Positions 2,257 to 20,291 of a stretch of 64,000 nucleotides of DNA are shown one piece after another (position 1 is the stretch's first letter; each line of letters starts with the position of its first letter). The translations under genes and the position numbers were made by a program. The DNA lies in contig CAVTQK010000024.1 of the NCBI GenBank assembly GCA_963736855.1, positions 64,001-128,000 on the forward strand, written 5' to 3'. This DNA is from an uncultured delta proteobacterium (lineage in GTDB: Bacteria > Desulfobacterota > Desulfobacteria > Desulfobacterales > UBA2156). Under the pieces are notes generated by a model. That model saw only the letters and a list, made by a program, of their open reading frames with translations. It did no database searches and was not told where the DNA came from.

Positions 2257-2265
2257 TATTAAGAT

Positions 2266-2450: not shown

Positions 2451-2493
2451 ATCAGACTTGCTGCAACAGTTTGCATTTTCAGGGCGATTAACT

Positions 2494-3690: not shown

Positions 3691-3738
3691 TGTCGTATTA
3701 ATGATTTAGGCAAATACATCGCAGGACTATGATATCGG

Positions 3739-4458
3739 ATGAGCGGCTTGTTACGGAAAAACAGAAATAGAATCAACGAAGAGCTTAACACGTGCCACAA
3801 GCGAAGGTTCTTTACACCCCTTACCTACGGCGCATATAGCGTAACGGTACCTGCTATTATAAATTATGCTGGCGGCAAGTTACTCGATATAGGTTGCGGA
3901 GATATGCCATATAAAGATGTCATTATGAGCAAGGTCAGCTGCTATGATACTTTTGATGTAGAAAAGCGCACCGAGGGTGTTACGTTCATAGGGGATATTC
4001 AAAATATGGCTATGATAAGTGACGGCAGTTATGACAGCGCCGTCTGCTTTGAGGTTTTAGAGCATATACAGCATCCGGCGAAGGCGCTTTCTGAGATTTT
4101 CAGGGTATTAAAACCCGGAGCACATCTTATACTTTCGATACCTCACTTAAGCCGATTGCATGAGGAGCCGCATGATTATTTTAGATACACAAAATATGGT
4201 ATCAGATTGCTGCTTGAGAATGCGGGTTTTAAGGTTATCGAGATAAATGTGCGGGGCGGTATTTTTAGTTTTTTAGGGCATCAATTCTCGACTCTTTTTG
4301 TTTGTTTGTTCTGGCATATACCTGTGATTAAACACATTGTCTTTTTTATTAACAAATGGCTTTGCGTAAGGTTTTGCCATTTTATTGACAAGACATTTGA
4401 TAAAAATCATATTTTGGCCTGTGGATATACCTGCGTTGCACAAAAACCCGATAAGTAG
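3739..4458 (+). CDS. Class I SAM-dependent methyltransferase
   Basis: LLDIGCG, CFEVLEHI, RVLKPG, HEEPHDYFRYT. Confidence 0.88.
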   Translation: MSGLLRKNRNRINEELNTCHKRRFFTPLTYGAYSVTVPAIINYAGGKLLDIGCGDMPYKDVIMSKVSCYDTFDVEKRTEGVTFIGDIQNMAMISDGSYDSAVCFEVLEHIQHPAKALSEIFRVLKPGAHLILSIPHLSRLHEEPHDYFRYTKYGIRLLLENAGFKVIEINVRGGIFSFLGHQFSTLFVCLFWHIPVIKHIVFFINKWLCVRFCHFIDKTFDKNHILACGYTCVAQKPDK

Positions 4459-4490
4459 AGATATTGGATAGTTTTAAAAAGGAAATTTAA

Positions 4491-5195
4491 GTGGTAAACA
4501 AAGCCTTAAAGGCAAGCGGCAATACATCGCAGGACTATGATAAATACTTTGAATCTATCCAGAAGTGTGGCCGGCACTATGTCAGATCCGTTTATAGAGC
4601 AGAAAAAGCCATTGAACTATTGCGGGCAAACAGCGGGTGTGCACTTTCGGTTGGGGTAGGAAGTCTCGGAGAAGCCAAAAAACTTAAAGAGGCAGGTTTT
4701 GAAGTGACTATTTGTGATATTTCGCCTCTTGCGGTGCAATTTGCAAAGAAAGAAAATTTTATGGTATTCCAATGCGACATTGCGAAAAATTCGCCTGACG
4801 GCAAATATGATTTTATTTTTGCCCTCGAAGTGCTGGAACATCTTGTTAACCCATTGGCTGCAATCAGGAACCTCGTTGCGGCGTTAAAAGATTCCGGAAC
4901 AATGGTTATCTCGTTGCCTAACGAATTTCACATTTGGGCGAGACTAATGATGCTGATAGGACGGCCACCATTTGGGGGCCATGACTGGCATCATTTAAGA
5001 TTTTTTAACCGTAAATTAGGCGAAAAGCTATTTGCTGAAGCAGGCTTGAATATATTGAGAAAAACATATTGTCCTTTGATGCCTTTACAGTGGAGTTGCC
5101 ATTGTGGTGAATTACTGCAATCTATTTGGCCGAGCTTATTTTCTCTTACTACTATTTGGACGCTTGAGCCTAAGCAAAATATATCAAAAAAGTGA
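4491..5195 (+). CDS. Class I SAM-dependent methyltransferase
   Basis: ALSVGVG, CDIS, YDFIFALEVLEHL, ISLPN. Confidence 0.82.
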   Translation: MVNKALKASGNTSQDYDKYFESIQKCGRHYVRSVYRAEKAIELLRANSGCALSVGVGSLGEAKKLKEAGFEVTICDISPLAVQFAKKENFMVFQCDIAKNSPDGKYDFIFALEVLEHLVNPLAAIRNLVAALKDSGTMVISLPNEFHIWARLMMLIGRPPFGGHDWHHLRFFNRKLGEKLFAEAGLNILRKTYCPLMPLQWSCHCGELLQSIWPSLFSLTTIWTLEPKQNISKK

Positions 5196-5225
5196 TAATC
5201 GTCTATCGAATTCCTGTGGCGGATT

Positions 5226-6722
5226 ATGTCTGATAATCAGCACAACAAGAAGATAGTTTTGGTCCGGAGCGGATACAAGGGGGGGTATGTCCATATACCT
5301 TTGGGCATTCTTTATTTGGCCGAAGCCCTTATTAAAAATGGATATGAGCCGCGGCTAATAGACCTGCGAATTCAGGAATTAGTTCCGGAGGATTTGGAGA
5401 ATGTTTTATATATGGGGGTCTCGCATATGACCGGTTCAATGCAGATTCCTCCCGCACTTAAGTGCGCCTCATTGGCAAAGGGAATGGGAGTGCCGGTGGT
5501 TTTCGGAGGACCGCATTCATCAATCCTTCCTGAACAAACGGCTGCTCATCCGCTTGTGGATATTGCGGTAAAAGGAGATGGCGAAGAGGTGGCTGTCGAA
5601 TTGGCTCAGTATTTCGAGGGACAAAGGGACCTTGCTTCTATAAAGTCGATTGCATACAAAGATTCTTCAGGCAAAGTAATCTTCACCGGCGACCGCAATC
5701 CTCCTCCTTTTAACCAGACGACTTTTCTTCCATACGAACTTCTTCCAATGAATAAATATTTGGCTACGAGCGCCGATTTCGACTTTCAGACGAGTCGCGG
5801 CTGCCCGCATCATTGCGCCTTCTGTGCGGAAATATCCCTGTTTGGACACTCCTGGCGTGCAAAACCTGCACAAGTCATTGTCGAAGAAGTCGAATCAGTA
5901 ATATCAAGGTATAATCCCTCCAGGATTCTCATTGTGGATTCCAACTTTTTCTGTAATAAAAAACGTGTCAGGGAGTTTTGCGAACTTGTAATCGAGCGGG
6001 GAATAAAAACCTGGTTTTTTGCGGAATGTCGTTTCGACTACTTTTCAAGATATGAAGATGAATTCCTGTATTTGTTGAAGAAAGCAGGTTTTACTGAAAT
6101 TGAGTTTGGGGGTGAATCAGGGTCAAATGTGACGCTTGCACGTATAAAGAAGGATGTATCGTCAGAGCAGATTCTGCAAAGTATAAAGAAGTGCCATGAA
6201 ACAGGATTAAAGTCATTCACTTCTTTTATGATTGGTTTTCCGGAAGAAACTGATGAACAGAGGATGGAAACTTTGGACATATATGACCAAATACGTCATT
6301 TATATCCTTCCGGTGCAAGAATAAACGGTATGTTTATCTATTCTCCATTTCCAGGAACAGAACTGTATGATAACGTAGTTGAAAGACATGGATTTGTACC
6401 GCCCAGAGACTTGGACGGCTGGGCGAAGTTTGAACTCTATGATTCTAAAAATGTAACATGGCTTGATGAACCGAAGAAGAAAGAGCTGCAAACTGTATCC
6501 ATTTTAGTTCGTTACTTCTTTACTTATAAGACAATTAGGGATTGGAGTTTTAAGGAGAAGAGAATTCGCCATCACGGCTTCATTAAGGCGGTCCTGTCCT
6601 TGGTTTGCAACGGGATTTTCTACCCTTTCGCAAAGCTTCGCTGGAAATTCAGAGTTTTCAGGTACGGAATTGAATGGAGAATCTGGCAAAAAATCTTTAG
6701 TTTGTATATGGGCCAGAAGTAG
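5226..6722 (+). CDS. B12-binding domain radical SAM protein (class B-like)
   Basis: PLGILYLA and VVFGGPH cobalamin-domain motifs; TSRGCPHHCAFC (CX3CX2C); GGESGS; FMIGFP; PFPGTELY. Confidence 0.9.
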   Translation: MSDNQHNKKIVLVRSGYKGGYVHIPLGILYLAEALIKNGYEPRLIDLRIQELVPEDLENVLYMGVSHMTGSMQIPPALKCASLAKGMGVPVVFGGPHSSILPEQTAAHPLVDIAVKGDGEEVAVELAQYFEGQRDLASIKSIAYKDSSGKVIFTGDRNPPPFNQTTFLPYELLPMNKYLATSADFDFQTSRGCPHHCAFCAEISLFGHSWRAKPAQVIVEEVESVISRYNPSRILIVDSNFFCNKKRVREFCELVIERGIKTWFFAECRFDYFSRYEDEFLYLLKKAGFTEIEFGGESGSNVTLARIKKDVSSEQILQSIKKCHETGLKSFTSFMIGFPEETDEQRMETLDIYDQIRHLYPSGARINGMFIYSPFPGTELYDNVVERHGFVPPRDLDGWAKFELYDSKNVTWLDEPKKKELQTVSILVRYFFTYKTIRDWSFKEKRIRHHGFIKAVLSLVCNGIFYPFAKLRWKFRVFRYGIEWRIWQKIFSLYMGQK

Positions 6723-6770
6723 CCGAATGTATTATAAAAGAGTTAGCGATATTTAGCAAAAAGTAAATCT

Positions 6771-7715
6771 ATGCATAAATGGTTTAAAAATATTACAGGT
6801 GTAGTAGTAATAATTTTTCTGGCGTGGTATTTGGCCAGGCACTGGGAACAGCTGAAAGAACTGTTTAAGTTAAGTCCGAAGCAGCTTTTTGTGATGTATT
6901 GCCTGTGGCTCTTAATAGCTCTAAGCGGGGCAGGTGCGGTCCGGTGTTTGCTGAGCGCCCTGAAGGTTAAGACCGGTTTTTGGGACATGGTAAGACTGCA
7001 GCACGCAGCCTTGCTGCTCAATTATGTCCCGATGAAATTCGGCACAGTTTTCCGTGCCAATTATCTGAAACGTCATTACGGACTGGCCTATACGCATTTT
7101 GCGACCTTTTTTTTGTATATCACTTTTTTAATGACCGCCGTGGCGGCAAGTGTAGCCCTGGTTGTTTTATTGAGCATCTATGGTCTGGGTGGATATGAAA
7201 ATAAGATTTTGGCTGTTGTTTTTGCGATAACAATCATAGGGTCATTATCTTTTCTGGTTGTGCCGCTTCCTGTCCCGGCTGGGCAGGGACGAGCAAGCTC
7301 CATTCTTCGGAAATTTCTTACAGGCCGAAGCCAAATATCGAAAGAAAAGAAAACGGTTTTTAGCTCGGCAGCGCTTCTGGGCGTAAATTTTTTGCTCGAT
7401 GCGGCGCGTCTCTGGATTATTTACACCAGTATGGGGGAAAGTATCAACGCGGGAGGATACCTTATACTCGGAGCTTTGAGTTTTGTTATTTTATTTGTAG
7501 GGCTGACGCCCGGTGCATTGGGAATCAGAGAGCTTGTTCTCGGTTTCTGTGCGACAGTTGTAGGATTACCGCTGGAGGTGGGCATCCTTGCGGCGATGAT
7601 AGACCGTGCAATAGCAGTTAGTTATATATTTGTTATAGGCGGTATATGTGCGATATGGCTTTGGCGCCAGTCGCCGGCGGATTTCAAAGAGCAGCGGAAC
7701 AACTGCCCGGCATAA
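6771..7715 (+). CDS. UPF0104 / lysylphosphatidylglycerol-synthase-TM-like membrane protein (putative flippase)
   Basis: About 8 hydrophobic segments; LLNYVPMKFG...RA and TPGALGIRE motifs. Confidence 0.75.
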   Translation: MHKWFKNITGVVVIIFLAWYLARHWEQLKELFKLSPKQLFVMYCLWLLIALSGAGAVRCLLSALKVKTGFWDMVRLQHAALLLNYVPMKFGTVFRANYLKRHYGLAYTHFATFFLYITFLMTAVAASVALVVLLSIYGLGGYENKILAVVFAITIIGSLSFLVVPLPVPAGQGRASSILRKFLTGRSQISKEKKTVFSSAALLGVNFLLDAARLWIIYTSMGESINAGGYLILGALSFVILFVGLTPGALGIRELVLGFCATVVGLPLEVGILAAMIDRAIAVSYIFVIGGICAIWLWRQSPADFKEQRNNCPA

Positions 7716-7849
7716 ACATCTAATAGCGGTTAATAATTGACCGGCAACCTTGCTGTTTAAGTCAAATATCATATATGGCGCCATACCTGTTTTGCAAAAA
7801 TTACCATTCTTTTATCTCGCTTAACCCGTATTCATTCAAATATTCATAA

Positions 7850-8800
7850 TCATGCTTTAAGGTTTTTATTGTATTCCATGTCAAACCACATTCCGAAAAA
7901 AAGAGCCTGCAGGCCGCTCACTATTGTGAAGATGAGCGCCATGGCGTTTGTTTTTGGGATAACGCCTGTAATACCCCATATATAGAAAAGCCTAAACAGC
8001 AGAGGTATGCTTCCAGCAAGAAGCAAAAATGACAAAATATAAAAAAATATTAAAGGGTGAAAGTCTTTGATCACATATTTGAAAACAAGCCTCCGCCAAA
8101 ATCCCTTGAATAATAGCCATGAAATTTTCGGAATGACTCTTCCAAGTCTTATGCCGGATTTCTCCCCAATGTTGTAAACGGGTCGGATATGAACATCTTT
8201 TACTTTGAAGTCGTATTGATTCAATTTGATCAGCATGTCGTTCGGCATTCCATAATAGCGGTATATCTCTTCCAGATCAAGCCGCCTTAAAGCTGTCAAA
8301 GAAATAGCGGTATATCCGCTCTGGGAATCTGCGATGTGCCAATAACCGGATGCAATTTTTGTTAATAAAGATAGGAAAGCGTTTCCTAAATATCGATAAT
8401 GTGGGATCATGCTCCATGCATCTCCGAAAAATAATCGATTTCCCTTTGAATAATCCGCGATACCCGAAACGACAGGATCGATAATGTTGTCAAAGTCCAG
8501 AGGGTCCATTTGGCCGTCACCTGCCATTACCGCCGTTACGTCGATATTGTTATCTCTCGCCCATTTGTATCCCGATGCGATAGCCCCTCCGACGCCCTGA
8601 TTATTTTCATGCTTGATCAGTTCTATACGCGAATCCTTTTGGAAATAACTTTCCACAACTTTTACGGTGCTGTCTGAACTCTTGTCGTCGACCACAATGA
8701 TAAAATCCACGTAGTCAGGCATGGTTTCGAAAACCCTGGCAATTTGGGTTTCTTCATTGTGAGCGGGGACAACGACACAAACCGATTTTTCTTTAACCAT
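7850..8800 (-). CDS. GT2 glycosyltransferase, DPM1/GtrB-like, with two C-terminal TM helices
   Basis: VVVPAHNEE, VVDDKSSD, NQGVGGA, MAGDGQM, DSQSGY; hydrophobic C-terminus. Confidence 0.88.
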   Translation of the reverse strand: MVKEKSVCVVVPAHNEETQIARVFETMPDYVDFIIVVDDKSSDSTVKVVESYFQKDSRIELIKHENNQGVGGAIASGYKWARDNNIDVTAVMAGDGQMDPLDFDNIIDPVVSGIADYSKGNRLFFGDAWSMIPHYRYLGNAFLSLLTKIASGYWHIADSQSGYTAISLTALRRLDLEEIYRYYGMPNDMLIKLNQYDFKVKDVHIRPVYNIGEKSGIRLGRVIPKISWLLFKGFWRRLVFKYVIKDFHPLIFFYILSFLLLAGSIPLLFRLFYIWGITGVIPKTNAMALIFTIVSGLQALFFGMWFDMEYNKNLKA

Positions 8801-9065
8801 TGGAATAATACCTCATGAGATAATCATATATAGCCCATAGCCGGCCTTGGAATATGACAACTTCGTATGGTTTTGGAAAAAAGCGACAAGTACTGTTTTT
8901 TCTGCTCATCCAATAATGCGCTTATCCAGTCATTAAGAAGATCGGATCTCAAGATCAATTAGCTTATACCATTTTTTTTAATTTCCATCAAAAGATTGCC
9001 GGAAAAAGGTGATACAACTGTTAATTTTTGAAAACCAGATTTTACAAATTCCGGAAGTGAAGCAC

Positions 9066-10267
9066 TCAACCCTCCAAATATTTCATGGAAACCGAGAAAA
9101 TCTTTTCCGGGGTGATCGATTTCAGACAAACATTATCCCCGTCACATGGAGAGTTCCTATGATTATAAGCGCTCAGACATGGCGAACAAGAGAGCCCTGC
9201 AAAAAGATTTTCCGCATTCGGACTTAGAGATCCGTATAAGATCGGCGTTTCAGGCCCGAAGATGGTTATGGTCGGGATAGGGCTCAGAGCGGCAATATGG
9301 ACCGGCCCGCCGTCGTTGGTTATCAGGAGGGATGCGATATGAAAAAGGGCCATCAGGTCCGTCAGGGAGCGAGTGTAACCCGTCAAATCGAAAACATTCG
9401 GGCTTTTTAAGGTCTGAATGAAGCCTTGCGCCAGATGCGAGTCGGCCGATAAGCCTATTATCCCAATATTAGATCCGGCTTTAAGGAGTTTTCGGATCAG
9501 TATGACATAATAACCAAACGGCCAAGCCCGGATGGATAATTGTCCACCGCCCGGATAAATCAAGGTCAGCTTTTTGGTAGAAATTTTAGGAAAATCGACG
9601 GCAAGTTTTTTTTGATATTCGTCCTTTTCCCGTTTTCCCATGCGCACATGTGGCAGGACTAATTGTTCGTCAGCGGGTTCCTTTTTTACCAATGGAAAGG
9701 AATCGGATTCAATGGCCTCGACCATATTGATGAATTGCCTGGAAATGTGAATGTAAGGATTGTACAAAACCGGCCGGTTGATAAAATTGCCTCGATAGAG
9801 CCCTTCCTGAGTATGGGGGTAAAATCCTACCATGATGGGTGCACCCGACAAAAAAGCGAAAATGCTGCTGATTCTGGAAAAAAGCTCACAGTCGATGACA
9901 ATATCCATCCGACGCTGCCGAATATCCGATAAGAGCAGACAGGCTGTCTTTGACCAAGGAAATAAAGGAATGGCTTCTTATGGGGAAAGATATTTTCATC
10001 GGGGACGGCTTCTAAAAGTTTCAGCGCTTCCGCGTTTTGGGCAAAGACCAGGTAATGAATCGTTGCGTTTGGATATTTCGATTCCAAGCGTTTCAACATG
10101 GGATAAGAAAGGATCAGGCTTCCAAGTTCGGAAAGTAAAATGATCAATATTCGGCGGATCTGAGGGGCTTTAAACTGATCCGGCTTTTTAAGATTGATTA
10201 AAGAAAAAAGACGGCAGATCAAGACCCCTGCCCATCTGTCGATTTTTCGCTGTGTTGCGATCTTCAT
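9066..10267 (-). pseudogene. GT9 (heptosyltransferase-like) glycosyltransferase split by two +1 frameshifts (possibly assembly errors)
   Basis: ORFs 9827-10267 (ILLSELGS) and 9066-9908 (TNDGGPVHIA, IFGPETP, CSPC) join into one frame if one base is removed from the run at 9982-9985 and one at 9926-9927. Confidence 0.78.
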
Positions 10268-10284
10268 TTTAATGCAGGTCCTTA

Positions 10285-12162
10285 TTATTGATGCAAGAGG
10301 GGCCACCTCGAAAAGCCCTTAAGAGCCGCCATTTTCAACCAATCCGATGAATCTTTTATATGAAATAAAGCAAGTGCCTCTGTGAATTGATTTTCTCGAA
10401 GATATGACACAGCAAGACAGTAACGGGCTTTCGGGTCATCCATTTCAGGCATGATATCCTGGAAGCCGATACAATCAGTATCTAAATCCTGTTTTATGTT
10501 TCCTTTCAGATATTTTTCGGCCTTGGCGGTCGATAAAAAACCAGTATTCATTTTCGCGTTCGAATCGCCCATGTGGAATTGTTTAAGGAGAAGGGCCTGA
10601 TAGAAGCTTTCAATGGCGCGATCCCCGCGTTCAATGCCTGTCATTGCCAGACCCAGATAATAAAACAGTTCCGCAAACCTTGCTTTTTGTTCAATGACAG
10701 ATTCCAGGACGGAGACGGCTTCACTGAAATGCCCGGTTGCAACCAATGCCCTTCCCAGATCATTCTGGTAATTGATTCTTTCTGGCTTCAGTCTTGCCGC
10801 TTCTCGGAAATGAACAACGGCGTTCTCCATATCACCCTGCTTTGCCATGGAATGCCCGAGGGCGGATTGGGCCAGATAATTGTCTTCCGTCACCTCCACG
10901 GCATGCTGAAAGAGCGCGAAACTATTTTTCCAGTATCCGATCTGCTTGAAAGAAAGCATCGATAAAGGAAAAAGAAGCGCGATTGCAAGGAAGGCACAAA
11001 TGGTTTTAGATATTTTCCATTTTTCAACAAGCTCCGCGGCGGTCCATGTCATCATCAGGTAAATCCCGACGATGGGAAAATAGAGGTAACGATCCGCGAT
11101 TGAAAAATCTCCGACTTTGATCAACCCTGAAACCGGCGCAAGAGCCAACAAAAACCACAACCCTCCGACGATGAGATATCCGTGATTTCGGCGGAAATAA
11201 ATCGTAATGGCGAGTGTTCCTCCCACCAGAATTGATGAAAGCGTGGTGCTGAGTATTGAAACATCTGTTTTCAGCGGGTAGATGCAGGAAAGCTTCAAGG
11301 GCCAGAACATTTTTGCCGTGTACGCGGGATATGTTGTTATCGCGTTGGCGATCCGGTTTGGAAAGGGATAGTCGGATAAAGGAATGATACCTCCAGAACT
11401 TTGTTGGGCTAAAAGTGTTAGGATACAGATGGTAAGCGATAAGAAAAGAAAGGGGATTTTTTCAGCAAAAGCGCGCAGATAGGAAATTTTTGGGAGCACA
11501 TCGGCATTTGAGCATTTCAAACGATTAAGCGGCCAAAAGTCGATGAGAAGCAGGATGAAGGGTAAAGTCATGAATATTGACTTGGACATCAGGCTTGCCG
11601 CAAAGGATATAATGGAAAGGACATAAAATAAAGTATTTTTTTGTTTTGCATATTTTAGGTATGCCCATAATGCAAGGAATGAAAAAAAAGCACCCAGAAC
11701 GTCCTTTCTGCTCGATATCCAGGCAACGGGTTCCACATGAATGGGATGCAAGGCGAAAAGCGCGGCGATAAAGGCGCTCGGCCATAAGGCGGAAGTCATG
11801 GTATTTAATATTATAAATAGAAGGATCGTATTTAAAACGTGAAGCAAAAGATTGGTAAGATGATAGCCGCCTGGATGCAGACCATGCAACGAGGCGTCCA
11901 GCATCAAAGAGATCCACGTCATGGGGTGCCAGAACTCAGCCTTGAAGGTCGTAAAGGCCCACTTGATATTTGAAAGGGAGAGGCCTCCTTTCACATGAGG
12001 ATTGTCTGTGACATAGACAGTATCATCGATGATGAGGAAGTCGTGTCTTAGTGCCTGCCGGTAAAGAAAAAAAAGAGTCACGCAGAGAATAATGCAGACA
12101 AGCAGCGCGAATCGTTTCCGGAAACGCATAAGATCCGTTTTGTCGGCAACAGGATTTATCAT
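10285..12162 (-). CDS. TMTC-like GT-C membrane glycosyltransferase with C-terminal TPRs
   Basis: First-loop DD (DFLIIDDTVYVTDNPHV), WHPMT, FALHPIHVEPVAWISSRKD, ADRYLYFP, about 11 TM segments then TPR-like repeats. Confidence 0.8.
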   Translation of the reverse strand: MINPVADKTDLMRFRKRFALLVCIILCVTLFFLYRQALRHDFLIIDDTVYVTDNPHVKGGLSLSNIKWAFTTFKAEFWHPMTWISLMLDASLHGLHPGGYHLTNLLLHVLNTILLFIILNTMTSALWPSAFIAALFALHPIHVEPVAWISSRKDVLGAFFSFLALWAYLKYAKQKNTLFYVLSIISFAASLMSKSIFMTLPFILLLIDFWPLNRLKCSNADVLPKISYLRAFAEKIPFLFLSLTICILTLLAQQSSGGIIPLSDYPFPNRIANAITTYPAYTAKMFWPLKLSCIYPLKTDVSILSTTLSSILVGGTLAITIYFRRNHGYLIVGGLWFLLALAPVSGLIKVGDFSIADRYLYFPIVGIYLMMTWTAAELVEKWKISKTICAFLAIALLFPLSMLSFKQIGYWKNSFALFQHAVEVTEDNYLAQSALGHSMAKQGDMENAVVHFREAARLKPERINYQNDLGRALVATGHFSEAVSVLESVIEQKARFAELFYYLGLAMTGIERGDRAIESFYQALLLKQFHMGDSNAKMNTGFLSTAKAEKYLKGNIKQDLDTDCIGFQDIMPEMDDPKARYCLAVSYLRENQFTEALALFHIKDSSDWLKMAALKGFSRWPLLHQ

Positions 12163-12167
12163 GCACG

Positions 12168-13827
12168 TTAAGGCCGGATTTCACACAACCAATAGTCGGA
12201 AAAGGCAAAAAGCAAATAGGTATGGTCGTTTAAAAAATTCACCATTATTTTTCCATGATACGGACTCAACTCATTCGTCACCCAGCCAAGGAAAAGATCG
12301 GCACGAAGTAGAATGTGGGTGACTCCTTTTTGTTTCATGGCTTCTGAAATAGAATCAGCCGTATTCTTCTTTTTAATCTCCCGTTTCAACCATTCATATC
12401 CGAAAAACACATCTCGATCGCTGTAATAGCCTCTGTTTCCGATAAACAGAAAAAGAATTTTACTATTAGGAGGCAGATGCCGATTGGCATATCGAATCAC
12501 ACGATATTCCGGGCGATACTTTTCAATGTAGTCATCCCGGCTGACCTTTCCTGAAATATAGGAAAATGGATCGACTACATGGAATTGTTCTTTCAAATAA
12601 AAAGCATTTGGGATTAGAAGTACTGCCATGATTATGGGAGGTATCCACGAATGAAATGATCTTAAAAATGCTTTTCGGATCAATATATCTTCGATATGTT
12701 TCAATCCCAATATCGAAAGTATAACCAGGGGGGGGATTATTGAGCCTGCATAGCGGATCCGCATGTCAGATTGGAAAAATACAAGCAGAAGCAAAAGAAT
12801 CGAAAATAAAACAAAGAATTTGATTTCGAATTGCAGTTGTGGGACCTGATTTTTGAAACCGATGAACAGAAAAAGTGGAAAAATGAGCAGAAATGGATTG
12901 AGCTTTCCATCAAAATACTTTGGGTTGTCGTCTTTTCCTTCAAAAAAGATTCTGATGGGAATAGTAATAAGCTGCCACCAATTCTCATTATAGATGACCT
13001 TTCTTAAGGCAAAGGGTTTTAATGCATAGATCGATTCGGATTTCTGGGCGTCGGCATCGCTATTTAATGATGATGTTGCTTGAGAATGAAACCAATGATC
13101 GAAGAGGGGATAGACAGGATTTTGGGTCAGGATATAGTTTCGGATCATCCATGGCGAAAAGAGGATCAAAGATACCAGCACGAAAAGACCCGAATAACCC
13201 AGCGCTTTGACCTGGCTTGCAGGAATTTTTCGGGGATATCGGATATAGGCCACGGGAATGAAAAAAGCTAACAAAAGCAGTGATATCAATGCGTTGTATT
13301 TGGTTCCGAGAGAAAGGCCGCACATGATGCCGGAAAAAACAAGCCATCTCATTTTCGAGGTTTCAAGCCATTTTAGAAGAAGCAACAGGGATGCTGTGGT
13401 AAAAAAGATCAATCCCAAGATCCACGTATACTGTAATGGAAAGTTTGACGATGATAGGGATGGAAAGGAAAAAAAGGGCGCCGAGAAGAGCGTAGTGAGT
13501 CGCAACGCGTTTTTTTAAATAATTAAAAATCAGCCATGCCGTCATCAAGGCAAAAGAAAAATGTATCAGCTTCGGAAGGATGTCGTTTCCGAAATATAAA
13601 GGAATCATATAAAGAAGATCGAGGTTCATGGGATAATAGGAAAAAGGGATATCGGGGATTTCATGGATGCCGCCATGCTTTAAATAAAGCTTTGGGACGA
13701 ACAAATGATGAGTCAATGCGTCCCGGCAGACCGGGGGAACCCAGGAAAGGACCACGATAATACCGATTAAGACGATGATCAGAACGGCAATGGTTTTCCG
13801 GATGAGGCGTTCGGCTCTTGAGTTCAT
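12168..13827 (-). pseudogene. ArnT/PMT-like GT-C membrane glycosyltransferase split by one +1 frameshift (possibly assembly error)
   Basis: PPVCRDALTHHL, SYYPMN, GLSLGTKYN, PWMIRNY..NPVYP; frames join as TVYVDLG-LIFFTTASL if one base of the run at 13414-13416 is removed. Confidence 0.75.
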
Positions 13828-14999
13828 TTCAATCCCTTATCGAGTACTTCCGGTGGAATCAAAGCCGTATAAAGTTGACCATCAATTAAATATGCCGGTG
13901 TTCCCCGAACTCCCAGTTTGATCCCCTCAAGGATATCTTTTCGAAGGAGAAAACGGATTGCCGGGTCATTTCTTGCCCTGGCAAGGGCAAGATAGTCCAA
14001 TCCTGTTTTTTCACCGATTTCTTTGGTGTTAAAGTTTCTTTTCTGGTCTGCGATTTCAAATAAAAAGTCGCTGGTTTTCCAAAATTTGTTTTGTGCTGCA
14101 GCGTAGATAGCCATGAGGGACATATCGCCGGATCCTCCGTGAAACGATTCTTTGACCAGATTATTAAATCGGTGATCCATGGGGAAATGCCGATGGATGA
14201 GCCGGATCTTTCCCGGGTTTTGCTGAATCAGAGTACGCAAAAAAAAATGCATTTTTTTGCACTGGAAGCACTGGTAGTCTGTGAATTCGGTGATGGTCAG
14301 CAATGGATTCTCGGCACCGATCCAGGGATGTCCCTCTATGGTAAATCCTGTGGGAATATCCTCAGAAAGCGGGGGCGCAGGAGTGCGCCAATAAGCAGGC
14401 AATCCAATCCAGATTGCGATGACCGAGGCAAAAAAAGGAACAAATAAATAAGTCGTTTTTCTTTTGGTAAGGAAGATGAATCGAAGATCTTGTTTTAAGG
14501 CTGAAAAAAAGGAATCCGGATCGAAACGTCTGCGAATCAGCCATGAGAAAAATAGAACCAGGAGATTGACCACATAGGTGGCGATGCACATGATACAATA
14601 GGATCGAATATAATATGTTGAAACCAAGGCAAAAAATACGCTCGTGAGGCTGAAAACCAAAGCGATCGTTACAATTGACGCCCATATGCGTTTTGGAATT
14701 GCTTGTTTATCCCAAGCATAAAAGAGGAGCAAAGAAAGAAAAGCATAACCGTAAATGCCCCATAGAGAGACCGGTACGCCAAACAGAATCGAATAGGGAC
14801 TTTGGGAAACCGTATCGCAATTCAAAGACTGGGTAATGGCACAAAAACTGCGGTATCCCATATCGGTGTGAACTCGATAATGGGAAATGAAAAGATAGAT
14901 GGAATCGAGAAACCCGAAAATCGTGAGTCCGACCACGGGCAAAAAATAGGCCCTGTAGGGAAGCGGGGTAACGGTCTTTATTAAATCCGCCTTTGACAT
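13824..14999 (-). CDS. VKOR (vitamin K epoxide reductase family) fused to DsbA/thioredoxin domain
   Basis: VKOR cysteines FCAITQSLNC and CIMC, SQSPYSILFGVP; Trx domain EFTDYQCFQC, RHFP, cis-Pro loop GVRGTP. Confidence 0.9.
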   Translation of the reverse strand: MSKADLIKTVTPLPYRAYFLPVVGLTIFGFLDSIYLFISHYRVHTDMGYRSFCAITQSLNCDTVSQSPYSILFGVPVSLWGIYGYAFLSLLLFYAWDKQAIPKRIWASIVTIALVFSLTSVFFALVSTYYIRSYCIMCIATYVVNLLVLFFSWLIRRRFDPDSFFSALKQDLRFIFLTKRKTTYLFVPFFASVIAIWIGLPAYWRTPAPPLSEDIPTGFTIEGHPWIGAENPLLTITEFTDYQCFQCKKMHFFLRTLIQQNPGKIRLIHRHFPMDHRFNNLVKESFHGGSGDMSLMAIYAAAQNKFWKTSDFLFEIADQKRNFNTKEIGEKTGLDYLALARARNDPAIRFLLRKDILEGIKLGVRGTPAYLIDGQLYTALIPPEVLDKGLK

Positions 15000-15007
15000 C
15001 GATTATT

Positions 15008-17092
15008 TCATGTGAAGTTTTTAATTGCCTGACGGATGATCGGGGCGATGCGATTTTTTTCGATGGGAGGAAAAACCGGATCCTTTTCAGTCATATTCAG
15101 ATACTTTGTTATTGAAACCAAGTCGGAATGGGCTAAAAGTTTTTTAGCATAACGCTGAGCCTGATCCAAATCTTTCCCCCGAATAGCATTTTCAATGAGG
15201 AAAAAGTAAGGCATCATATCTTCGGGAGAGGATTTGGCCGCCCGGAGCAAGAACCATTCGGCATTTTTAAAACTTCCTAAACGGCTCAGTGCGACGCCTA
15301 AATTCAGCAAAACAGGGCCTTCCTCCGGTGCGGTTTTCAGTGCCGCTTGAAGGAACGGCAGGGCTTCTACATACCGGTTCTGCCATAATAGGACAAAACC
15401 CTTGAGGTTTGCATATTTATAGGTTTTCAATGCTCCGTGCTGCAATACGAAATCAAGATGCAGCGAAGCCTCCTCAAATCGTTTGAGAAGGATCAGGGTT
15501 TTGGCGAGGTCGTAACGATTTTTGATAAAAAATGGGTCGATGTCGAGGGCTTTCTCATAGTATGGTAAAGCGGTATCGAATTTTTCAACATTAAAAAATA
15601 CACCCGCGATATTTCCGTAAACCTCTGCCTGATACAAAGGGTTGGACACGTAAAGAGAGAGGGCCTTTTCCGATAAATAAAGTGCGAGAGACAAATCTTT
15701 TGAAGAGGCATTCTTTTTCCATCCCAGCTCGATGGCCAGATTCACCAGGGGTCTGGAGTTGCCGGGGGCCTTCTTAGCCGCATCCTCCCATAGGGATACA
15801 TTTGTGGCCCAAGCCATGTTACGGATATGAGTCCCTATTCCCAGATTGATTAGAAGCAAAACGGTAAAAGCAATAACGGCAACCGATGCCCACCCGATTT
15901 TTTTTAAATGACGGATCGAATGATGTATTAAAAGAGCGACGGGTAAAAAAAGAAAAGCGGAAGGAAGATAATTGCGGTGTTCGAAAATGATTTCAAGGGC
16001 AATAACAGAGGATTCGATCAGGTGATTGAGAAAGAAGAAAAGAACGGCAAAGCCGATAAGGGGGCGCTTTTTCAAAAGAATGACTCCAATGCCGAAAAGT
16101 GCGAAAACGATGAGAATCGACGGCAATGTTGTCCATGGATGCATCAGGGATTGGGAAAGGGGTATATCGTGATCAATGGAAAGCCGTTGGGGCAATGGAT
16201 AAAAAATCAAACTCAAATAAAAGAGGAGGACCCGGGGCTGAGTCAGGATACGTTCCATGAAAGAAAAGGATCGATGAGCGTATCCTTTTAAAAAGAAAAA
16301 GGGATCTCCTTTGGAATAATAGAGCAAAAAAACTAAGAGTATGAGAATCCCCAAGCATAATAGGAGGGTTTGGGATGTTTTTTGGAACATAGTTCTCAAC
16401 GAAAAGTCGAAAAAGGCGATTTCGAGGAGGATCAGTGCAAGGGGAAACATGGCAGCGTTTTCCTTGGAAGAAAAGCTGCATAGAAAACTGAGTGTGCATC
16501 CGCTGAAATAAATCACTTTTCTGGAGTTAATGGGTGTAAACCGGGCTTGGAGGTAGAGAAAGAGCCCCAAAAGATAAAACAGCGCGGCAAGGGCGGTCAT
16601 ACGCTGAACGATATATGTCACCGCCTGGGTTTGGATGGGGTTGATCGCCCACAGGGATGCACTCAGCAGTGAAACGAAGTAGATTTCTTCTGGTTTGTAT
16701 TTTCCCTCCAACATCGGAGTGTTAAACAGGCCTTTTGTTATTAAGAAAAGGACGAATGCGGTCAAAACATGGATGATAATGTTAATCCAGTGATACCCGA
16801 CAGGATCGTCCTTTCCGAAATACCAGTTCAAGGCAAAGGTGAAACAGGCAAATGGACGATATAACTTCTTAACGGTTCCCGGGTATGCAATAAAGGTCTG
16901 ATAGAGGGTTTCGGGCATGAGGTTATCGATGTGGAGGCGCTCATTGTCGAGGATGTTGGGTTTGTCGTCCATCTGCCAGGAGGCATGGATCGAATTGGCA
17001 TAAACCGGAAAGATGAGCAACGCCAGCAGAATCAGGGCAACACAATATCTTCCGGCATTCACGGAGCAAGCGTCGGCGCTATTTCCATTCAT
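15008..17092 (-). CDS. TMTC-like GT-C membrane glycosyltransferase with C-terminal TPRs
   Basis: WQMDDKPNI (DD), LYRP, WAINPIQTQAVTYIVQR, SKENA, EHRNYLPS, TPR tail; start set at ATG 17092 because the longer ORF runs through a MITE and terminator. Confidence 0.82.
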   Translation of the reverse strand: MNGNSADACSVNAGRYCVALILLALLIFPVYANSIHASWQMDDKPNILDNERLHIDNLMPETLYQTFIAYPGTVKKLYRPFACFTFALNWYFGKDDPVGYHWINIIIHVLTAFVLFLITKGLFNTPMLEGKYKPEEIYFVSLLSASLWAINPIQTQAVTYIVQRMTALAALFYLLGLFLYLQARFTPINSRKVIYFSGCTLSFLCSFSSKENAAMFPLALILLEIAFFDFSLRTMFQKTSQTLLLCLGILILLVFLLYYSKGDPFFFLKGYAHRSFSFMERILTQPRVLLFYLSLIFYPLPQRLSIDHDIPLSQSLMHPWTTLPSILIVFALFGIGVILLKKRPLIGFAVLFFFLNHLIESSVIALEIIFEHRNYLPSAFLFLPVALLIHHSIRHLKKIGWASVAVIAFTVLLLINLGIGTHIRNMAWATNVSLWEDAAKKAPGNSRPLVNLAIELGWKKNASSKDLSLALYLSEKALSLYVSNPLYQAEVYGNIAGVFFNVEKFDTALPYYEKALDIDPFFIKNRYDLAKTLILLKRFEEASLHLDFVLQHGALKTYKYANLKGFVLLWQNRYVEALPFLQAALKTAPEEGPVLLNLGVALSRLGSFKNAEWFLLRAAKSSPEDMMPYFFLIENAIRGKDLDQAQRYAKKLLAHSDLVSITKYLNMTEKDPVFPPIEKNRIAPIIRQAIKNFT

Positions 17093-17137
17093 GGACGTTG
17101 TATTCCAACAGGGGTATTTTTTAGTGGATTCAAATTT

Positions 17138-17290
17138 GATGGCTTCGTAAAAAGTCCAATTTCTGCGTTGCGCTTCATCCCGTTGCGATTTCGACGTACG
17201 ATAAGTACGCCTCATCACACGGGATTCGCGACGCCTTGAACTTGAACTTTTTACTTTGCCATCTGATTTTCGACTTTTTACGAGTTCATC
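17138..17290. mobile_element. 153-bp MITE, family A (divergent copy)
   Basis: Ends GATGGCTTCGTAAAAAGTC / GACTTTTTACGAGTTCATC; flanks AAATTT / AAATTG; same length and layout as copies at 36666, 43140, 47467. Confidence 0.8.
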
Positions 17291-17386
17291 AAATTGTATA
17301 AATATAACACAATTTTTTAAAAATGATAAAGAATTAAACGGTTGTTGGGCTGCGGATTCATTAAAGAACCGATTTGAAAAAATTAA

Positions 17387-17413
17387 AACGGGAAAGCAAT
17401 ATGCTTTCCCGTT
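17387..17413 (-). terminator. Intrinsic terminator after pilin 1
   Basis: 12-bp stem AACGGGAAAGCA-ATA-TGCTTTCCCGTT followed by T-rich tract on minus strand. Confidence 0.7.
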
Positions 17414-17436
17414 AAATTGCTGAAGCTCGGCATGAC

Positions 17437-17853
17437 CTATCGGACTGAAATGAACTTGGTATTTACGTTGTTGTTCCAATAAGCAGATGCGGCCTGATAG
17501 TCGGGAGGACAACGCCCGCTTCCGTCCGTCACCGTGATGGTGATGTTGATATTCGGATCCAAACCGGTGATGGTGCCGGAATTGATGCTTACGCCTTCCC
17601 CGGAGAATCGGTATCCTAAGCTGTTGTTGAGATTCGCGATAGCGGGCGTGGAAGTACGGTTTGGGACGGCAAAGTAATCCGCAATGGCCGAGGAAATCCC
17701 GTCCGCATCCATCTCTGCTCGGGTGCAGAAGGATTTGTTCCGATAGGCGATGAAGTTGGGGATGGCGATGGCCGCCAGGATGCCGATGATGGCCACGACG
17801 ATCATCAGCTCGATCAGGGTAAAGCCCTTTTGAATTTTCAAGCGATCCGGCAT
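17437..17853 (-). CDS. pilA: Type IVa pilin 1 (10-aa leader, 128-aa mature)
   Basis: [32 protein letters not shown] before ATG 17853. Confidence 0.93.
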
Positions 17854-17913
17854 GAATTTTCCTCCTAAAAAAGGGATCGACGACAAACCTGATTGGACGT
17901 ATCTGAATTGTAC

Positions 17914-17929
17914 AGCAAAAAACGAGCCA
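17914..17929 (-). promoter_or_regulatory. sigma54 -24/-12 promoter of pilin 1
   Basis: TGGCTCGTTTTTTGCT on minus strand, GG-N10-GC spacing. Confidence 0.75.
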
Positions 17930-17956
17930 AGATAAAGTTTTTTACCAATATAATTA

Positions 17957-17969
17957 TAATTAATTGATA
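17957..17969. promoter_or_regulatory. IHF-like binding site, pilin 1 promoter
   Basis: TAATTAATTGATA matches YAANNNNTTGATW, between the sigma54 box and the putative UAS. Confidence 0.55.
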
Positions 17970-18049
17970 TAATTAGAATTTAGTGAAAATATAAGAGGGA
18001 TTGGATACGCTAAGGGAGATACAAACAGTAACAAAAAAACGCTATTCTA

Positions 18050-18061
18050 CAAAAATTTGTC
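18050..18061. promoter_or_regulatory. Putative PilR upstream activating site, pilin 1
   Basis: CAAAAATTTGTC about 120-130 bp upstream of the sigma54 box; same motif twice upstream of pilin 2. Confidence 0.4.
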
Positions 18062-18150
18062 TCCGTCAGGAAGTTCCCGCGTTTGAAAGAAAAACAGTTT
18101 CCCGGCGATTGAATACGAGTGCTGACACCAGGCCTGCTGAGAAAAAAATA

Positions 18151-18183
18151 AAAAAAGGGAAGGCGAAATGCCTTCCCTTTTTT
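18151..18183. terminator. Intrinsic terminator after pilin 2
   Basis: AAAAAAGGGAAGGC-GAAAT-GCCTTCCCTTTTTT perfect 14-bp inverted repeat. Confidence 0.85.
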
Positions 18184-18201
18184 AAATTAGTTCGTTGAAA
18201 G

Positions 18202-18637
18202 TTAGCGCACCGAGATGTATTTCGTGAAAACACCCATGGTTGCAGCGCCATCAGGAGACCAGTATGCGGCTGCTGTGCGATAGTCTGATCGGACAGCGAC
18301 CGCTCATGTCCGTTACCGTAATGGTGATTCTGACATTGACATCGTTGGCGGTAATGCTTCCCGAGTTTCGGCTGGCGCCTTCACCGGAGAAGCGGAAGCC
18401 CCCGCCGCCTTGGAGTTGGGCTATAGTGGGAAGGGTAACATGTGTGGGTATGGCAAAATAATCCGAAAGGGCAGCCGCCAATCCATCCGCATCCGCTTCG
18501 GCCCGGGAGCAGAAAGATTTATTCCTGTAGGCAATGAAGTTCGGAATGGCGATGGCCGCCAGGATGCCGATGATGGCCACGACGATCATCAGCTCGATCA
18601 GGGTAAAGCCTTTTTGGGTTCTCAGACGACTCAACAT
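18202..18637 (-). CDS. pilA: Type IVa pilin 2, with +1 frameshift near 18289-18290 (as written, ORF stops at 18251)
   Basis: [12 protein letters not shown]; removing one base gives GRCPSDYRTAAAYWSPDGAATMGVFTKYISVR*, matching pilin 1 [26 protein letters not shown]. Confidence 0.88.
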
Positions 18638-18712
18638 GGTAATTTCCTCCTTTTTTGATTGTTGTTATTGAAAGATCTCAAAAGATCTCAAAAAGATTTT
18701 GAAAGGAAATGA

Positions 18713-18728
18713 TGCAAAAGGTAGGCCA
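18713..18728 (-). promoter_or_regulatory. sigma54 -24/-12 promoter of pilin 2
   Basis: TGGCCTACCTTTTGCA on minus strand, GG-N10-GC spacing. Confidence 0.75.
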
Positions 18729-18840
18729 GAATTTAGCCATCTTTGTTGAATAATGTTAACCGGCTGATAATCCATTGAAAATTAATTTTATTCCAAAGGC
18801 CGGCGCCTTATTCAGCCCATAAAATTTTCTTGCCGACGCC

Positions 18841-18871
18841 CAAATTTTGTCATTTCGTGGCAAAATTTGTC
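18841..18871. promoter_or_regulatory. Putative tandem PilR upstream activating sites, pilin 2
   Basis: CAAATTTTGTC (18841-18851) and CAAAATTTGTC (18861-18871), 20-bp period, 113-143 bp upstream of the sigma54 box. Confidence 0.45.
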
Positions 18872-18890
18872 GCGAGATAGCCCATCAGTT

Positions 18891-20291
18891 TCATTTTTCA
18901 ATTCCCAACTTATCGAGCCGATAGCGAAGGGAGCGCAGGTTGATGCCTAAAAACTCTGCCGCACGATCCATTTTTCCTGAAGCGATTTCCAGGGCCTTTT
19001 CGAGATAGGCCTTTTCGATCTCTTCAAGGATGGTGTCCAGTGAAACCCCTTTGGCCACGTCGTCTAAGTCAAAGCGCTGGCCTTTGATACCTTCGATCCA
19101 TCGGCGCTTGAATACCGAGAGGGCGAGGCTGTCAGGCAAAAGGATGTTGGTTCCGGACAGGGCTACGCTGCGTTCGATGATGTTTTCCAGCTCCCGGACG
19201 TTACCCGGAAAATTATATTTATTGAGCATGTCGATGGCATAAGAGGAGATCTTTTTCATCTCCTTTCCCATCTCGCGGCTGTATTTTTCCAGGAAGTGTT
19301 GGGCTAAAAGCTTTAAGTCGCTCTTTCTTTCCCGCAAGGGAGGCATCTTGATCTCGATGACGTTGAGCCGGTAATAGAGGTCTTCCCGGAAGTTCTTGGC
19401 GATAACTTCGTCCTGGAGCTTTTTATTGGTGGCCGACAGTATCCGGATGTCCACCCGGACATCTTCGTTGCTTCCCACGGCCCGGATCACCTTTTCCTGG
19501 ACGGCGCGCAAGAGCTTGATCTGGATAGGAAGGCTCAAGTCCCCGATTTCATCCAAAAAGACCGTCCCTTTGTCGGCCACTTCGAAAAGCCCTTTCTTAT
19601 CGGCGGTGGCTCCGGTGAAAGACCCTTTCCTATGGCCGAAAAGCTCACTTTCCATGAGGGTCTCCGGGATCCCTCCGCAATGGATGGCCACAAAGGGGAA
19701 GTGTTTTCGGTCGCTTTCCTCATGAATGGCCTGGGCGACCAGTTCTTTCCCGGTGCCGCTTTCTCCGGTGATGAGGACATTGGTCTTGGTTTTGGCCACC
19801 TGCCTGACCATCTGGTAAATATGCTGCATCTGAGGGCTGTTCCCGATGATTTTTCCGAAATGCAGCGTCTTCTTCAATTCGTCGTCGATGAAGGCCTTTT
19901 CCTGCTCAACGGTCTTGAGGTGCAGGGCGCTTTGGATGGTCTGCTTGAGTTCTTCGGCGTCGAAGGGTTTGGGAACGTAGTCAAAGGCCCCGGCATTCAT
20001 GGCCTCCACAGCGGTTTCCGTGGAGGCATAGGCGCTGATCATGATGACAACGGCGTTGGGGTTTTTGGCTTTTGCCGCTTTCAGCACCTCGATGCCCGAG
20101 AGGCCGCCGAGCCGGATATCGAGAAGGAAGAGATCATAGTCTGACTCTTCAATGAGGGACAGGGCTTTTTCCCCACTTTCAGCTGAAACCACCTGGTATC
20201 CTTCCTTTTCCAGGAGGATCTCCAAGAATTCCCTCATGCTGAGTTCATCGTCGACGACGAGAATCTTTTCCGAAGGGTTTTGATTTTCCAT
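18891..20291 (-). CDS. pilR: sigma54-dependent response regulator (REC-AAA+-HTH), PilR-like
   Basis: ILVVDDE receiver, GESGTGKE, ESELFGHRKGSFTGA, FLDEIG, FPGNVRELEN, Fis-type HTH ending RSLRYRLDKLG; directly upstream of pilins. Confidence 0.88.
   Translation of the reverse strand: MENQNPSEKILVVDDELSMREFLEILLEKEGYQVVSAESGEKALSLIEESDYDLFLLDIRLGGLSGIEVLKAAKAKNPNAVVIMISAYASTETAVEAMNAGAFDYVPKPFDAEELKQTIQSALHLKTVEQEKAFIDDELKKTLHFGKIIGNSPQMQHIYQMVRQVAKTKTNVLITGESGTGKELVAQAIHEESDRKHFPFVAIHCGGIPETLMESELFGHRKGSFTGATADKKGLFEVADKGTVFLDEIGDLSLPIQIKLLRAVQEKVIRAVGSNEDVRVDIRILSATNKKLQDEVIAKNFREDLYYRLNVIEIKMPPLRERKSDLKLLAQHFLEKYSREMGKEMKKISSYAIDMLNKYNFPGNVRELENIIERSVALSGTNILLPDSLALSVFKRRWIEGIKGQRFDLDDVAKGVSLDTILEEIEKAYLEKALEIASGKMDRAAEFLGINLRSLRYRLDKLGIEK

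Follow-up and report, generated by a model that had tools for sequence, protein, structure and literature searches.

A pilA-linked cassette of TMTC-like GT-C proteins and a VKOR-DsbA fusion, a candidate pilin maturation system, in an uncultured delta proteobacterium

What is the purpose of a run of membrane glycosyltransferase genes packed behind two pilin genes? The question is raised by positions 6771 to 20291 of a 64-kb stretch of contig CAVTQK010000024.1 from an uncultured delta proteobacterium (the window, meaning the whole stretch of 64,000 nt). Behind a pilR gene and two pilA genes lie genes for two GT-C proteins with tetratricopeptide repeats (TPR), here called TMTC_A and TMTC_B, a VKOR-DsbA fusion, an ArnT-like GT-C protein and two further glycosyltransferases. 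The original prediction took them for a glycosylation and maturation system dedicated to the pilin. The pilA-linked cassette is real and conserved, and we lean towards reading it as an enlarged maturation cassette of the TfpW kind, which would both glycosylate the pilin and form its disulfide. Among the new elements of the cassette, the dedicated VKOR-DsbA has the strongest support. The features on which the argument draws are as follows.

18891..20291, minus strand: PilR-type sigma-54 response regulator (Pfam Response_reg, Sigma54_activat and HTH_8)
18714..18728, minus strand: sigma-54-type -24/-12 site of pilA1 (pattern match)
18202..18637, minus strand: pilA1, type IVa major pilin of the two-cysteine type (N_methyl; NF041775 below its cut-off)
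18183-18151, minus strand: terminator-like hairpin after pilA1
17915..17929, minus strand: sigma-54-type -24/-12 site of pilA2 (pattern match)
17437..17853, minus strand: pilA2, type IVa major pilin and proposed acceptor (mature length 128 aa; Cys33 and Cys105)
17387..17413, minus strand: intrinsic-terminator-like hairpin after pilA2
15008..17092, minus strand: TMTC_A, GT-C membrane domain and TPR, 694 aa, candidate pilin O-glycosyltransferase
13824..14999, minus strand: VKOR-DsbA fusion, 391 aa, candidate pilin disulfide catalyst (Pfam VKOR and DSBA)
12168..13827, minus strand: ArnT/PMT-like GT-C protein without TPR (extra base near 13413)
10285..12162, minus strand: TMTC_B, second GT-C protein with TPR, of a different clade, 625 aa
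9066..10267, minus strand: GT9, heptosyltransferase-family GT-B protein, accessory (Pfam Glyco_transf_9; two extra bases)
7850..8800, minus strand: GT2, polyprenol-phosphate-sugar synthase-like (best profile match a Dol-P-Man synthase)
6771..7715, plus strand: UPF0104 / LPG_synthase_TM membrane protein, possible translocase (PF03706)

Linkage to pilin genes and pilin cysteines

Linkage was assessed in 136 annotated loci, comprising 40 around TMTC_A matches (a subset of the matches), 76 derived from contigs (from the best 80 of 621, with duplicates removed by sequence) and 20 around pilins or pilR. A pilin gene lies within 3 kb for 85 of the 127 clade-A proteins, the clade of TMTC_A; 23 others are too near an edge, leaving 85/104. 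Among the 39 clade-B proteins it is 12 of 29 informative cases, a figure raised by the loci anchored on pilins. In a tree of 174 membrane domains, TMTC_A of the window falls inside a clade of 113 (support 0.99), where 71 members are adjacent to a pilin (within 1.2 kb), 16 have one within 5 kb, 5 have none and 20 are uninformative, the window's own protein being the last. The sister clade of 10 is pilin-linked in 0/7 informative cases. Counted from the pilins instead, 30 of the 41 related genomes gave a pilin match at E ≤ 1e-11, and four were dropped (two contig ends, two not fetched); by hand count of the 26 left, the best pilin has a TMTC-like gene within 3 kb in 18, only an ArnT-like gene in 3, and neither in 5. 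The arrangement is present in named records of Desulfobacterales, Desulfobulbales (including Ca. Electrothrix and Ca. Electronema) and Syntrophales, with the genes co-directional, convergent or reordered, and pilR orthologues sit ahead of pilA in many related loci.

The VKOR-DsbA gene shows a second kind of linkage. Its product keeps all catalytic cysteines (C53/C61, CIMC135-138 and CFQC244-247, with GTP366) and is the only VKOR in the window's genome; DsbB was found in 0/41 related genomes. PilA1 and PilA2 are of a pilin type in which helix alpha1 carries Cys33 and an R-C-P motif contains Cys105, and C33, C105 and P106 are invariant in 57/57 aligned pilins, a set selected by that motif. A VKOR gene lies beside two-cysteine pilins in 36/48 loci and beside pilins with fewer cysteines in 0/22. 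Divided by pilin type (70 loci), the counts are 35/41 for the Cys33/Cys105 type, 1/7 for other two-cysteine pilins and 0/22 for those with less than two; these counts leave out loci that were shorter than 12 kb and lacked VKOR, and kin among the rest are not independent. The full fusion occurs in 12/41 genomes, all twelve with the Cys33/Cys105 type, and that type was found without the fusion in G001 (contig end), G010 and G032 (79% complete). This tracking of the pilin cysteines supports the predicted role of a pilin-linked oxidative folding catalyst, and VKOR-DsbA quite probably oxidises PilA. Separately, several relatives (G036:C10, G010:C427, G003:C13 and others) have DsbA-like matches that contain a single in-frame TGA and may be selenocysteine thioredoxins.

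Several counts weigh against a dedication to pilins. The related genomes behind the linkage figures are not independent, and the family is huge (38,496 clusters at E ≤ 0.001; 6,884 at E ≤ 1e-30). In an even draw of 120 genomes from the phylum, 7 of 80 matches (33 genomes) lay within 3.4 kb of a listed pilin, the pilin list being limited to E 1e-14, and a TMTC-like match lay within 1.5 kb at 7 of the 29 best pilin loci; no close VKOR-DsbA orthologue was found in the draw (best E 4.5e-38, 27% identity). One relative (G038) has 14 clade-B matches, none in the 20 kb around its best pilin, and loci L152 and L166 carry pilA with VKOR and/or an ArnT-like gene and no TMTC-like gene nearby. Such figures, together with paralog arrays away from pilins, would fit a general envelope-glycosylation island behind pilA. 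There the GT-C proteins would act on lipid A, glycolipids or different proteins of the periplasm or surface, VKOR-DsbA would serve as a general oxidase, and the main acceptor would be something other than the pilin. The ArnT-like and GT9 families act on lipopolysaccharide, and descent alone can keep synteny. However, adjacency to pilA survives inversion, reordering and the exchange of clade A for clade B or others, the sister clade is not pilin-linked, VKOR presence follows the pilin cysteines, and the seven relatives in which TMTC_A was not found also yielded neither the pilR orthologue nor the pilin type. We regard an envelope island as improbable. Judged from sequence comparison, pilin dedication is a property of the subclade and the full cassette is narrow; the predicted co-occurrence with pilins holds in the TMTC_A clade (within 5 kb for 87/92 informative members) and not across the phylum, where most homologues are not beside a pilin.

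The seven relatives are G002, G004, G006, G007, G008, G014 and G015; the joint absence suggests block loss or a shared assembly gap. A second arrangement was also seen, in which a clade-A gene is convergent with a pilin of another type, mostly without cysteines, beside minor-pilin genes and often with a different sigma-54 regulator (L046, L047, L049, L050, L054, L118, L119, L137 and L143).

TMTC_A, TMTC_B and the proposed acceptor

The 694-aa ATG start of TMTC_A agrees with the database entry and with homologues; an 834-aa open reading frame (ORF) with a TTG start (17512) was rejected, as it spans the terminator and a repeat element. An AlphaFold2 (AF2) model of residues 1-450, built from 45 sequences, has a pLDDT of 81.7 and a pTM of 0.87. 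Its best VIA-align rows are AglB (Z 18.4, root-mean-square deviation 3.8, 286 residues aligned) and ArnT (Z 17.3, 4.8, 332 aligned), followed by STT3B (17.2), ALG12 (17.1) and Pmt (17.0). All of the top 20 rows (Z 8.6-18.4) are GT-C enzymes or a related glycosylphosphatidylinositol-transamidase subunit, and the first unrelated row has Z 5.8. The best Foldseek rows are of the same GT-C clan, none at E ≤ 0.001. As modelled, TMTC_A has the GT-C fold. Neither TMTC nor TMEM260 chains turned up in these fold comparisons, a result that does not rule them out; searching PDB sequences with the membrane domain gave no match.

Whether the two proteins can be called TMTCs was judged from the TMTC motifs listed in Table 4 of PMC7801869, in its available text; order and spacing, not an alignment with human TMTCs, guided the assignment. 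The predicted first-loop DD is present in both, as D42-D43 in TMTC_A and D46-D47 in TMTC_B. TMTC_A further has YRP78-80, R164, KE210-211 and EHRNY371-375 (Arg shifted by one); DD, R79, R164, K210 and EHRxY are invariant in 60/60 clade-A homologues, with P80 in 59 and E211 in 57. TMTC_B has RKD152-154, K194 without the Glu, and DRYLY357-361, and in clade B D46 is kept in 60/60 and D47 in 59/60. Motifs M1 (DD), M4 (KE) and M7 (ERxxY) are accordingly recognisable in the window proteins, with these deviations. M2 (SHKSYRP), M3 (RxD) and M5 (DW) are not: TMTC_A keeps YRP and R164 but reads RMT and DH, and TMTC_B reads WHP and RKD and has no DW, the lapses in M3 and M5 counting against the favoured reading of the cassette. 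Neither protein matches PF08409/DUF1736, and a direct assignment to TMTC by this family was rejected; at the level of whole genomes, its cut-off is passed in only 2/41 relatives. One related protein (L063) passes it (35 bits) and is matched by the window proteins at E 1.8e-18 and 1.1e-26, and the ESM Atlas lists eukaryotic DUF1736 clusters at 0.93 and 0.92. By sequence homology TMTC_A and TMTC_B are TMTC-like and lie outside strict TMTC membership. The predicted relation to TMTCs is borne out in the GT-C fold of the TMTC_A model and in the homology to the TMTC group, and not for the DUF1736 family.

Both proteins carry a C-terminal TPR array (Pfam TPR families) behind the membrane domain, and profile evidence for GT-C in TMTC_B comes from a weak PMT_2 match. 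They share 22% identity, as distant paralogs, and are the only two TMTC-like matches in the genome; a tblastn search against plasmids gave no homologue of either. Elsewhere, TMTC-like paralogs form arrays: 14 clade-B matches in G038, 14 clade-A-like matches in G073, and four clade-B genes after pilA in L157.

The AF2 model of PilA2 (pLDDT 88.9) has PAK pilin as its top Foldseek row (E 0.012). In 38 loci with the Cys33/Cys105 type, pilin distance correlates with distance in the TMTC_A TPR (rho 0.41, permutation p 0.004) and less with the membrane domain (0.26), pilR (0.09), the ArnT-like protein (0.07) or VKOR (0.07). A first pairwise value of 0.80 (29 loci) was superseded by this alignment-based repeat, which gave 0.42 overall and 0.41 within the type. 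Over all 67 loci the contrast is lost, pilin distance following pilR (0.56) and the membrane domain (0.52) no less closely than the TPR (0.42), which tells against a special tie. The correlation weakly favours recognition of the pilin by the TPR, and fast-evolving parts may correlate regardless. Ser/Thr residues are kept at several positions of the pilin head, including the strand before Cys105 (55-87% of the 38). According to the available passages of PMC11292533, TMTCs glycosylate Ser/Thr of beta-strands and their TPRs are proposed as the recognition part.

A complex model of TMTC_A with PilA2 scored 0.78, against 0.00 for the best of three controls; at least 96% of the contacts coincide between its runs, with a partner pLDDT of at least 77. 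The score mark is reached by 116/157 solved and 2/215 mismatched pairs, a calibration that holds roughly with the alignments used here. Pilin residues 2-19 are placed on TMTC_A helices 18-30, 135-146 and 407-422. Two points speak against specificity: conservation at the interface does not exceed that of the remaining helix positions (entropy 2.56 and 2.52), and the controls were not selected as membrane helices. The modelled contact may be generic helix packing.

Since this contact is intramembrane and away from the DD motif, it would also suit a TMTC_A that acts mainly as a pilin-binding assembly or quality-control factor like TfpY, with the ArnT-like GT-C protein as the real pilin transferase. 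The ArnT-like gene is present in 22/27 VKOR loci, and L152 has pilA, VKOR and the ArnT-like gene without TMTC_A. The invariance of the TMTC_A motifs in 60/60 homologues is, however, as for an active enzyme, and distances of the ArnT-like protein do not follow those of the pilin (rho 0.0-0.07). We hold such a role for TMTC_A to be very unlikely; probably, on the sequence evidence, TMTC_A glycosylates PilA.

Regulation, donor genes and state of the locus

The tight operon of the original prediction was reproduced from ORF coordinates: order and strands match in the 64-kb window, with the cassette on the minus strand (20291-7850) and UPF0104 convergent on the plus strand, and the gaps between TMTC_A, VKOR-DsbA, ArnT-like, TMTC_B and GT9 are exactly 8, -4, 5 and 17 nt. 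GT9 and GT2 are 265 nt apart. Between pilA2 and TMTC_A lie 344 nt, which hold the terminator-like hairpin and a 161-bp repeat element. The regulator is presumably PilR, a name we assigned from gene position. The sigma-54 pattern has 6 matches in the window against 2.8 expected by chance, and a sigma-54-type motif lies upstream of 36/57 related pilins and in 2% of random windows.

As assembled, the ArnT-like gene is split into two ORFs (154 and 445 aa) and the frame is broken twice in GT9 and once in pilA1, near the gene end. Contigs from four public runs (X1, X2, X3 and X5), which are other close strains and not reads of the window's own genome, were compared with window positions 7000-20400. 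The base at 13413 (ArnT-like) is missing from X1, X2 and X5; that at 9928 (GT9) from X1, X3 and X5; that at 9989 (GT9) from X1, X2 and X5, and at 9982 instead in X3; and that at 18286 (pilA1) from X1 only. Because the close-strain contigs lack them, the four extra bases are most likely assembly errors, and a pseudogene reading of the three genes was rejected. Also, a base at 7714 in the UPF0104 stop codon is missing in X1 and X5, and the true end of that gene may differ.

Content was compared in 66 clade-A loci that span 15 kb or more. ArnT-like genes are found in 33, VKOR in 27, clade B in 12 and GT9 in 2, while a GT2 of any kind occurs in 38 and a close GT2 orthologue in 17. GT9 had been named as part of the operon; it was rejected as a core component on its low count. 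Seven of seven intact ArnT-like homologues scanned pass the PMT_2 and PMT cut-offs, and the first-loop Asp is kept in at least 90% of 43. The prediction of a DPM1/GtrB-like GT2 is borne out by its best profile match, 5mlz (Dol-P-Man synthase, E 1.4e-17), followed by chondroitin synthase, ArnC and GtrB; the best NCBIfam match, AglJ, is below cut-off. The C-terminal segments of GT2 are hydrophobic, and it reads A-G-D where the DPM1/GtrB/ArnC consensus has D-G-D. Whether this GT2 makes the donor is, on what its sequence suggests, evenly balanced.

UPF0104 is the final gene of a separate plus-strand run (622-7715). A single-sequence BLAST search placed relatives in 2/66 loci and 2/41 genomes, counts that proved too low; a profile search found them in 18/67 loci, and the idea that the gene is unrelated was dropped. 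The window's genome has four family members, and a GtrA-type flippase was not found in it. PF03706 proteins are described as potential lipid translocators in the available text of 10.1101/2022.03.11.483950, by analogy with which the UPF0104 protein is possibly a sugar-lipid flippase.

Two further features lie in or beside the cassette.

17138..17298, strandless: 161-bp palindromic insertion resembling a miniature inverted-repeat transposable element, outside the system (skipped in the X1 contig)
622..6722, plus strand: convergent variable glycan genes, membership uncertain (Pfam; same low-GC segment)

The genes at 622-6722 encode a Gfo/Idh/MocA-hexapeptide fusion, a GT4, two S-adenosylmethionine (SAM) methyltransferases and a B12 radical SAM protein, with homologues in 4, 10, 7, 2 and 4 of 67 loci. 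They raise the alternative that the acceptor is the same and the donor another: a rare, modified sugar or short oligosaccharide made by these genes and GT9, carried on a lipid and transferred en bloc, GT2 serving one GT-C protein only. The variable genes lie in the same low-GC segment and recur by related cassettes, a Wzx-like flippase follows in L089 and L097, a close GT2 orthologue is far from universal (17/66), and AglB, an oligosaccharyltransferase, heads the structural rows of TMTC_A, nearly level with ArnT and Pmt. Yet each variable gene occurs in at most 10/67 loci while TMTC_A is constant, some GT2 is present in 38/66, and TMTCs, ArnT and PMTs take monosaccharide-phosphate donors (available text of PMC7801869; established knowledge). 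This donor is an unlikely one. The Gfo/Idh/MocA-hexapeptide acetyltransferase fusion was itself seen again, at 63-68% identity, beside related cassettes L089, L097 and L117.

The 161-bp element has 97 blastn matches in the genome, 87 of them near full length, and a folding z of -6.0. It is polymorphic between strains, its copies fall into two similarity classes (about 95-100% and about 75-81%), and a diverged copy lies near window position 23800. Segment 1-19,000 is AT-richer (GC mostly 0.39-0.46) than the DNA beyond, and an Rfam scan of window positions 1-30000 gave no match. The window's genome has pilB and pilT above cut-off; its best pilQ match (G000:C20:36263-37433) is split over two frames, likely by another assembly indel. 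Very short pilins (59-61 aa mature) occur in same-order relatives (L155:5704-5919, L170:7664-7963 and L170:8555-8836) and presumably resemble Geobacter PilA-N; in L155 the short pilin is followed by an ABC-ATPase-like gene and a divergent TMTC-like gene. At L163:7344-10322, pilA and a GT2 gene precede a 678-aa membrane protein without a Pfam match, possibly another pilin-modifying GT-C protein.

Working model and comparison with known systems

The TfpW-like maturation cassette that we favour would work as follows; gene content, folds, motifs and linkage are observed, and we infer from them the donor, the sites that accept the sugar and how the GT-C proteins share the work. PilR would drive both pilA genes from their sigma-54 promoters, the terminators holding the accessory genes lower. 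The membrane-anchored pilin would gain its Cys33-Cys105 disulfide from VKOR-DsbA, with electrons passing to quinone, the electron acceptor of VKOR. In the cytoplasm GT2 would load a monosaccharide on polyprenol phosphate; this would be flipped by a translocase, perhaps the UPF0104 protein, and TMTC_A would move the sugar by its periplasmic DD to Ser/Thr of the pilin head, the TPR aiding recognition. The ArnT-like protein and TMTC_B may add more sugars, or act at different sites or on different proteins. By analogy with TfpW, the whole would probably serve pilus stability and phage evasion.

A bolder form of the model, which we consider doubtful, makes glycosylation depend on the fold. A pilin locked by its disulfide (from its own VKOR-DsbA, in an anaerobe without DsbB) would dock by its membrane helix on TMTC_A and be read by the TPR; the alternating Thr of the strand before Cys105 (I-T-I-T-V-T-D) would be glycosylated like cadherin strands, and the two further GT-C proteins would lengthen the glycan on the periplasmic side. 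This would hold as well for PilA of cable bacteria, reported as the most expressed protein in the proteome of one of them. If the favoured model is right, many sulfate reducers and cable bacteria have glycoprotein pili that a dedicated set of enzymes completes, which bears on phage defence and on the role of cable-bacterium PilA (PMC10580974, as far as its available passages go). The cassette would also offer a small bacterial enzyme-substrate pair for the study of TMTC-like enzymes, for which the PDB searches here returned no structure, and would show a route to one needed disulfide in anaerobes without DsbB.

The original prediction knew of no characterised bacterial counterpart, which does not hold as far as architecture goes. 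TfpW of Pseudomonas aeruginosa group IV (Pa5196, PA7), a pilin D-arabinofuranosyltransferase, is a GT-C pilin glycosyltransferase with TPR encoded directly after pilA. The available text of 10.1101/2020.04.19.049825 describes it as a 646-aa protein with a DDX motif, 11 predicted transmembrane segments and a C-terminal TPR, which is required for pilin glycosylation, needs the DDX motif and adds D-arabinofuranose (D-Araf) to pilin Ser/Thr; it also guards against pilus phages (PMC11841053, available passages). Because pilA followed by a GT-C transferase with TPR is known from TfpW, the cassette is a limited surprise. The likeness was drawn from architecture and position, not from sequence alignment: both have a GT-C first-loop DD, a periplasmic C-terminal TPR, about 650 aa and a gene directly 3' of pilA, as TMTC_A has downstream of the major pilin gene. 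TfpW uses a lipid-linked donor and makes an O-linkage to pilin Ser/Thr, and the same is assumed of the cassette. Y-x6-P is present in the corresponding loop (TMTC_A 292-299, TMTC_B 281-288), but the full TfpW motif YX6PFX7P, as given in the available text, is not, the F and the last P being absent at that spacing, which counts against the favoured model. The cassette further differs in having three GT-C proteins instead of one, a fused VKOR-DsbA, and a DPM1-like GT2 in place of D-Araf genes. Neither DprE1 and DprE2 nor DPPR synthase was found among the 82 of 115 neighbouring ORFs scanned, a search of these ORFs and not of the whole genome.

Animal TMTC1-4 (GT105, PF08409), protein O-mannosyltransferases that take mannose from Dol-P-Man, share with the window proteins the GT-C and TPR architecture and co-linear DD, YRP, R, KE and E-R-Y elements, as far as the available descriptions go; the window proteins differ in the absence of a PF08409 match, of the SHKS part of M2 and of the DW motif. 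Prokaryotic full-length TMTC homologues had been noted, without function, in the available text of PMC7801869, which also gives, together with established knowledge, monosaccharide-phosphate donors for TMTCs, ArnT and PMTs. In the cable bacterium Ca. Electrothrix, the available passages of PMC10580974 describe a cluster of pilA then TPR genes, flanked by sugar-modifying enzymes, and read the TPR proteins as serving protein-protein interaction, not glycosyl transfer; VKOR-DsbA is unmentioned in those passages. These TPR genes score as TMTC_A relatives (L107, L108).

VKOR-thioredoxin enzymes of Synechococcus and Actinobacteria have in common with VKOR-DsbA the four VKOR cysteines, a CxxC thioredoxin and a cis-Pro-type motif. 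The VKOR-DsbA gene differs in belonging to a cassette and going with one pilin type, in anaerobes in which DsbB was not found, and the published links between VKOR and pili, in the parts of that literature available, concern sortase pili of Actinobacteria. No description of the Desulfobacterota cassette as a glycosylation or disulfide system was found in a literature search outside which most subscription papers lay. By analogy, the reading that suits the cassette best is a TfpW-type system of pilin glycosylation, enlarged and equipped with a disulfide catalyst of its own.

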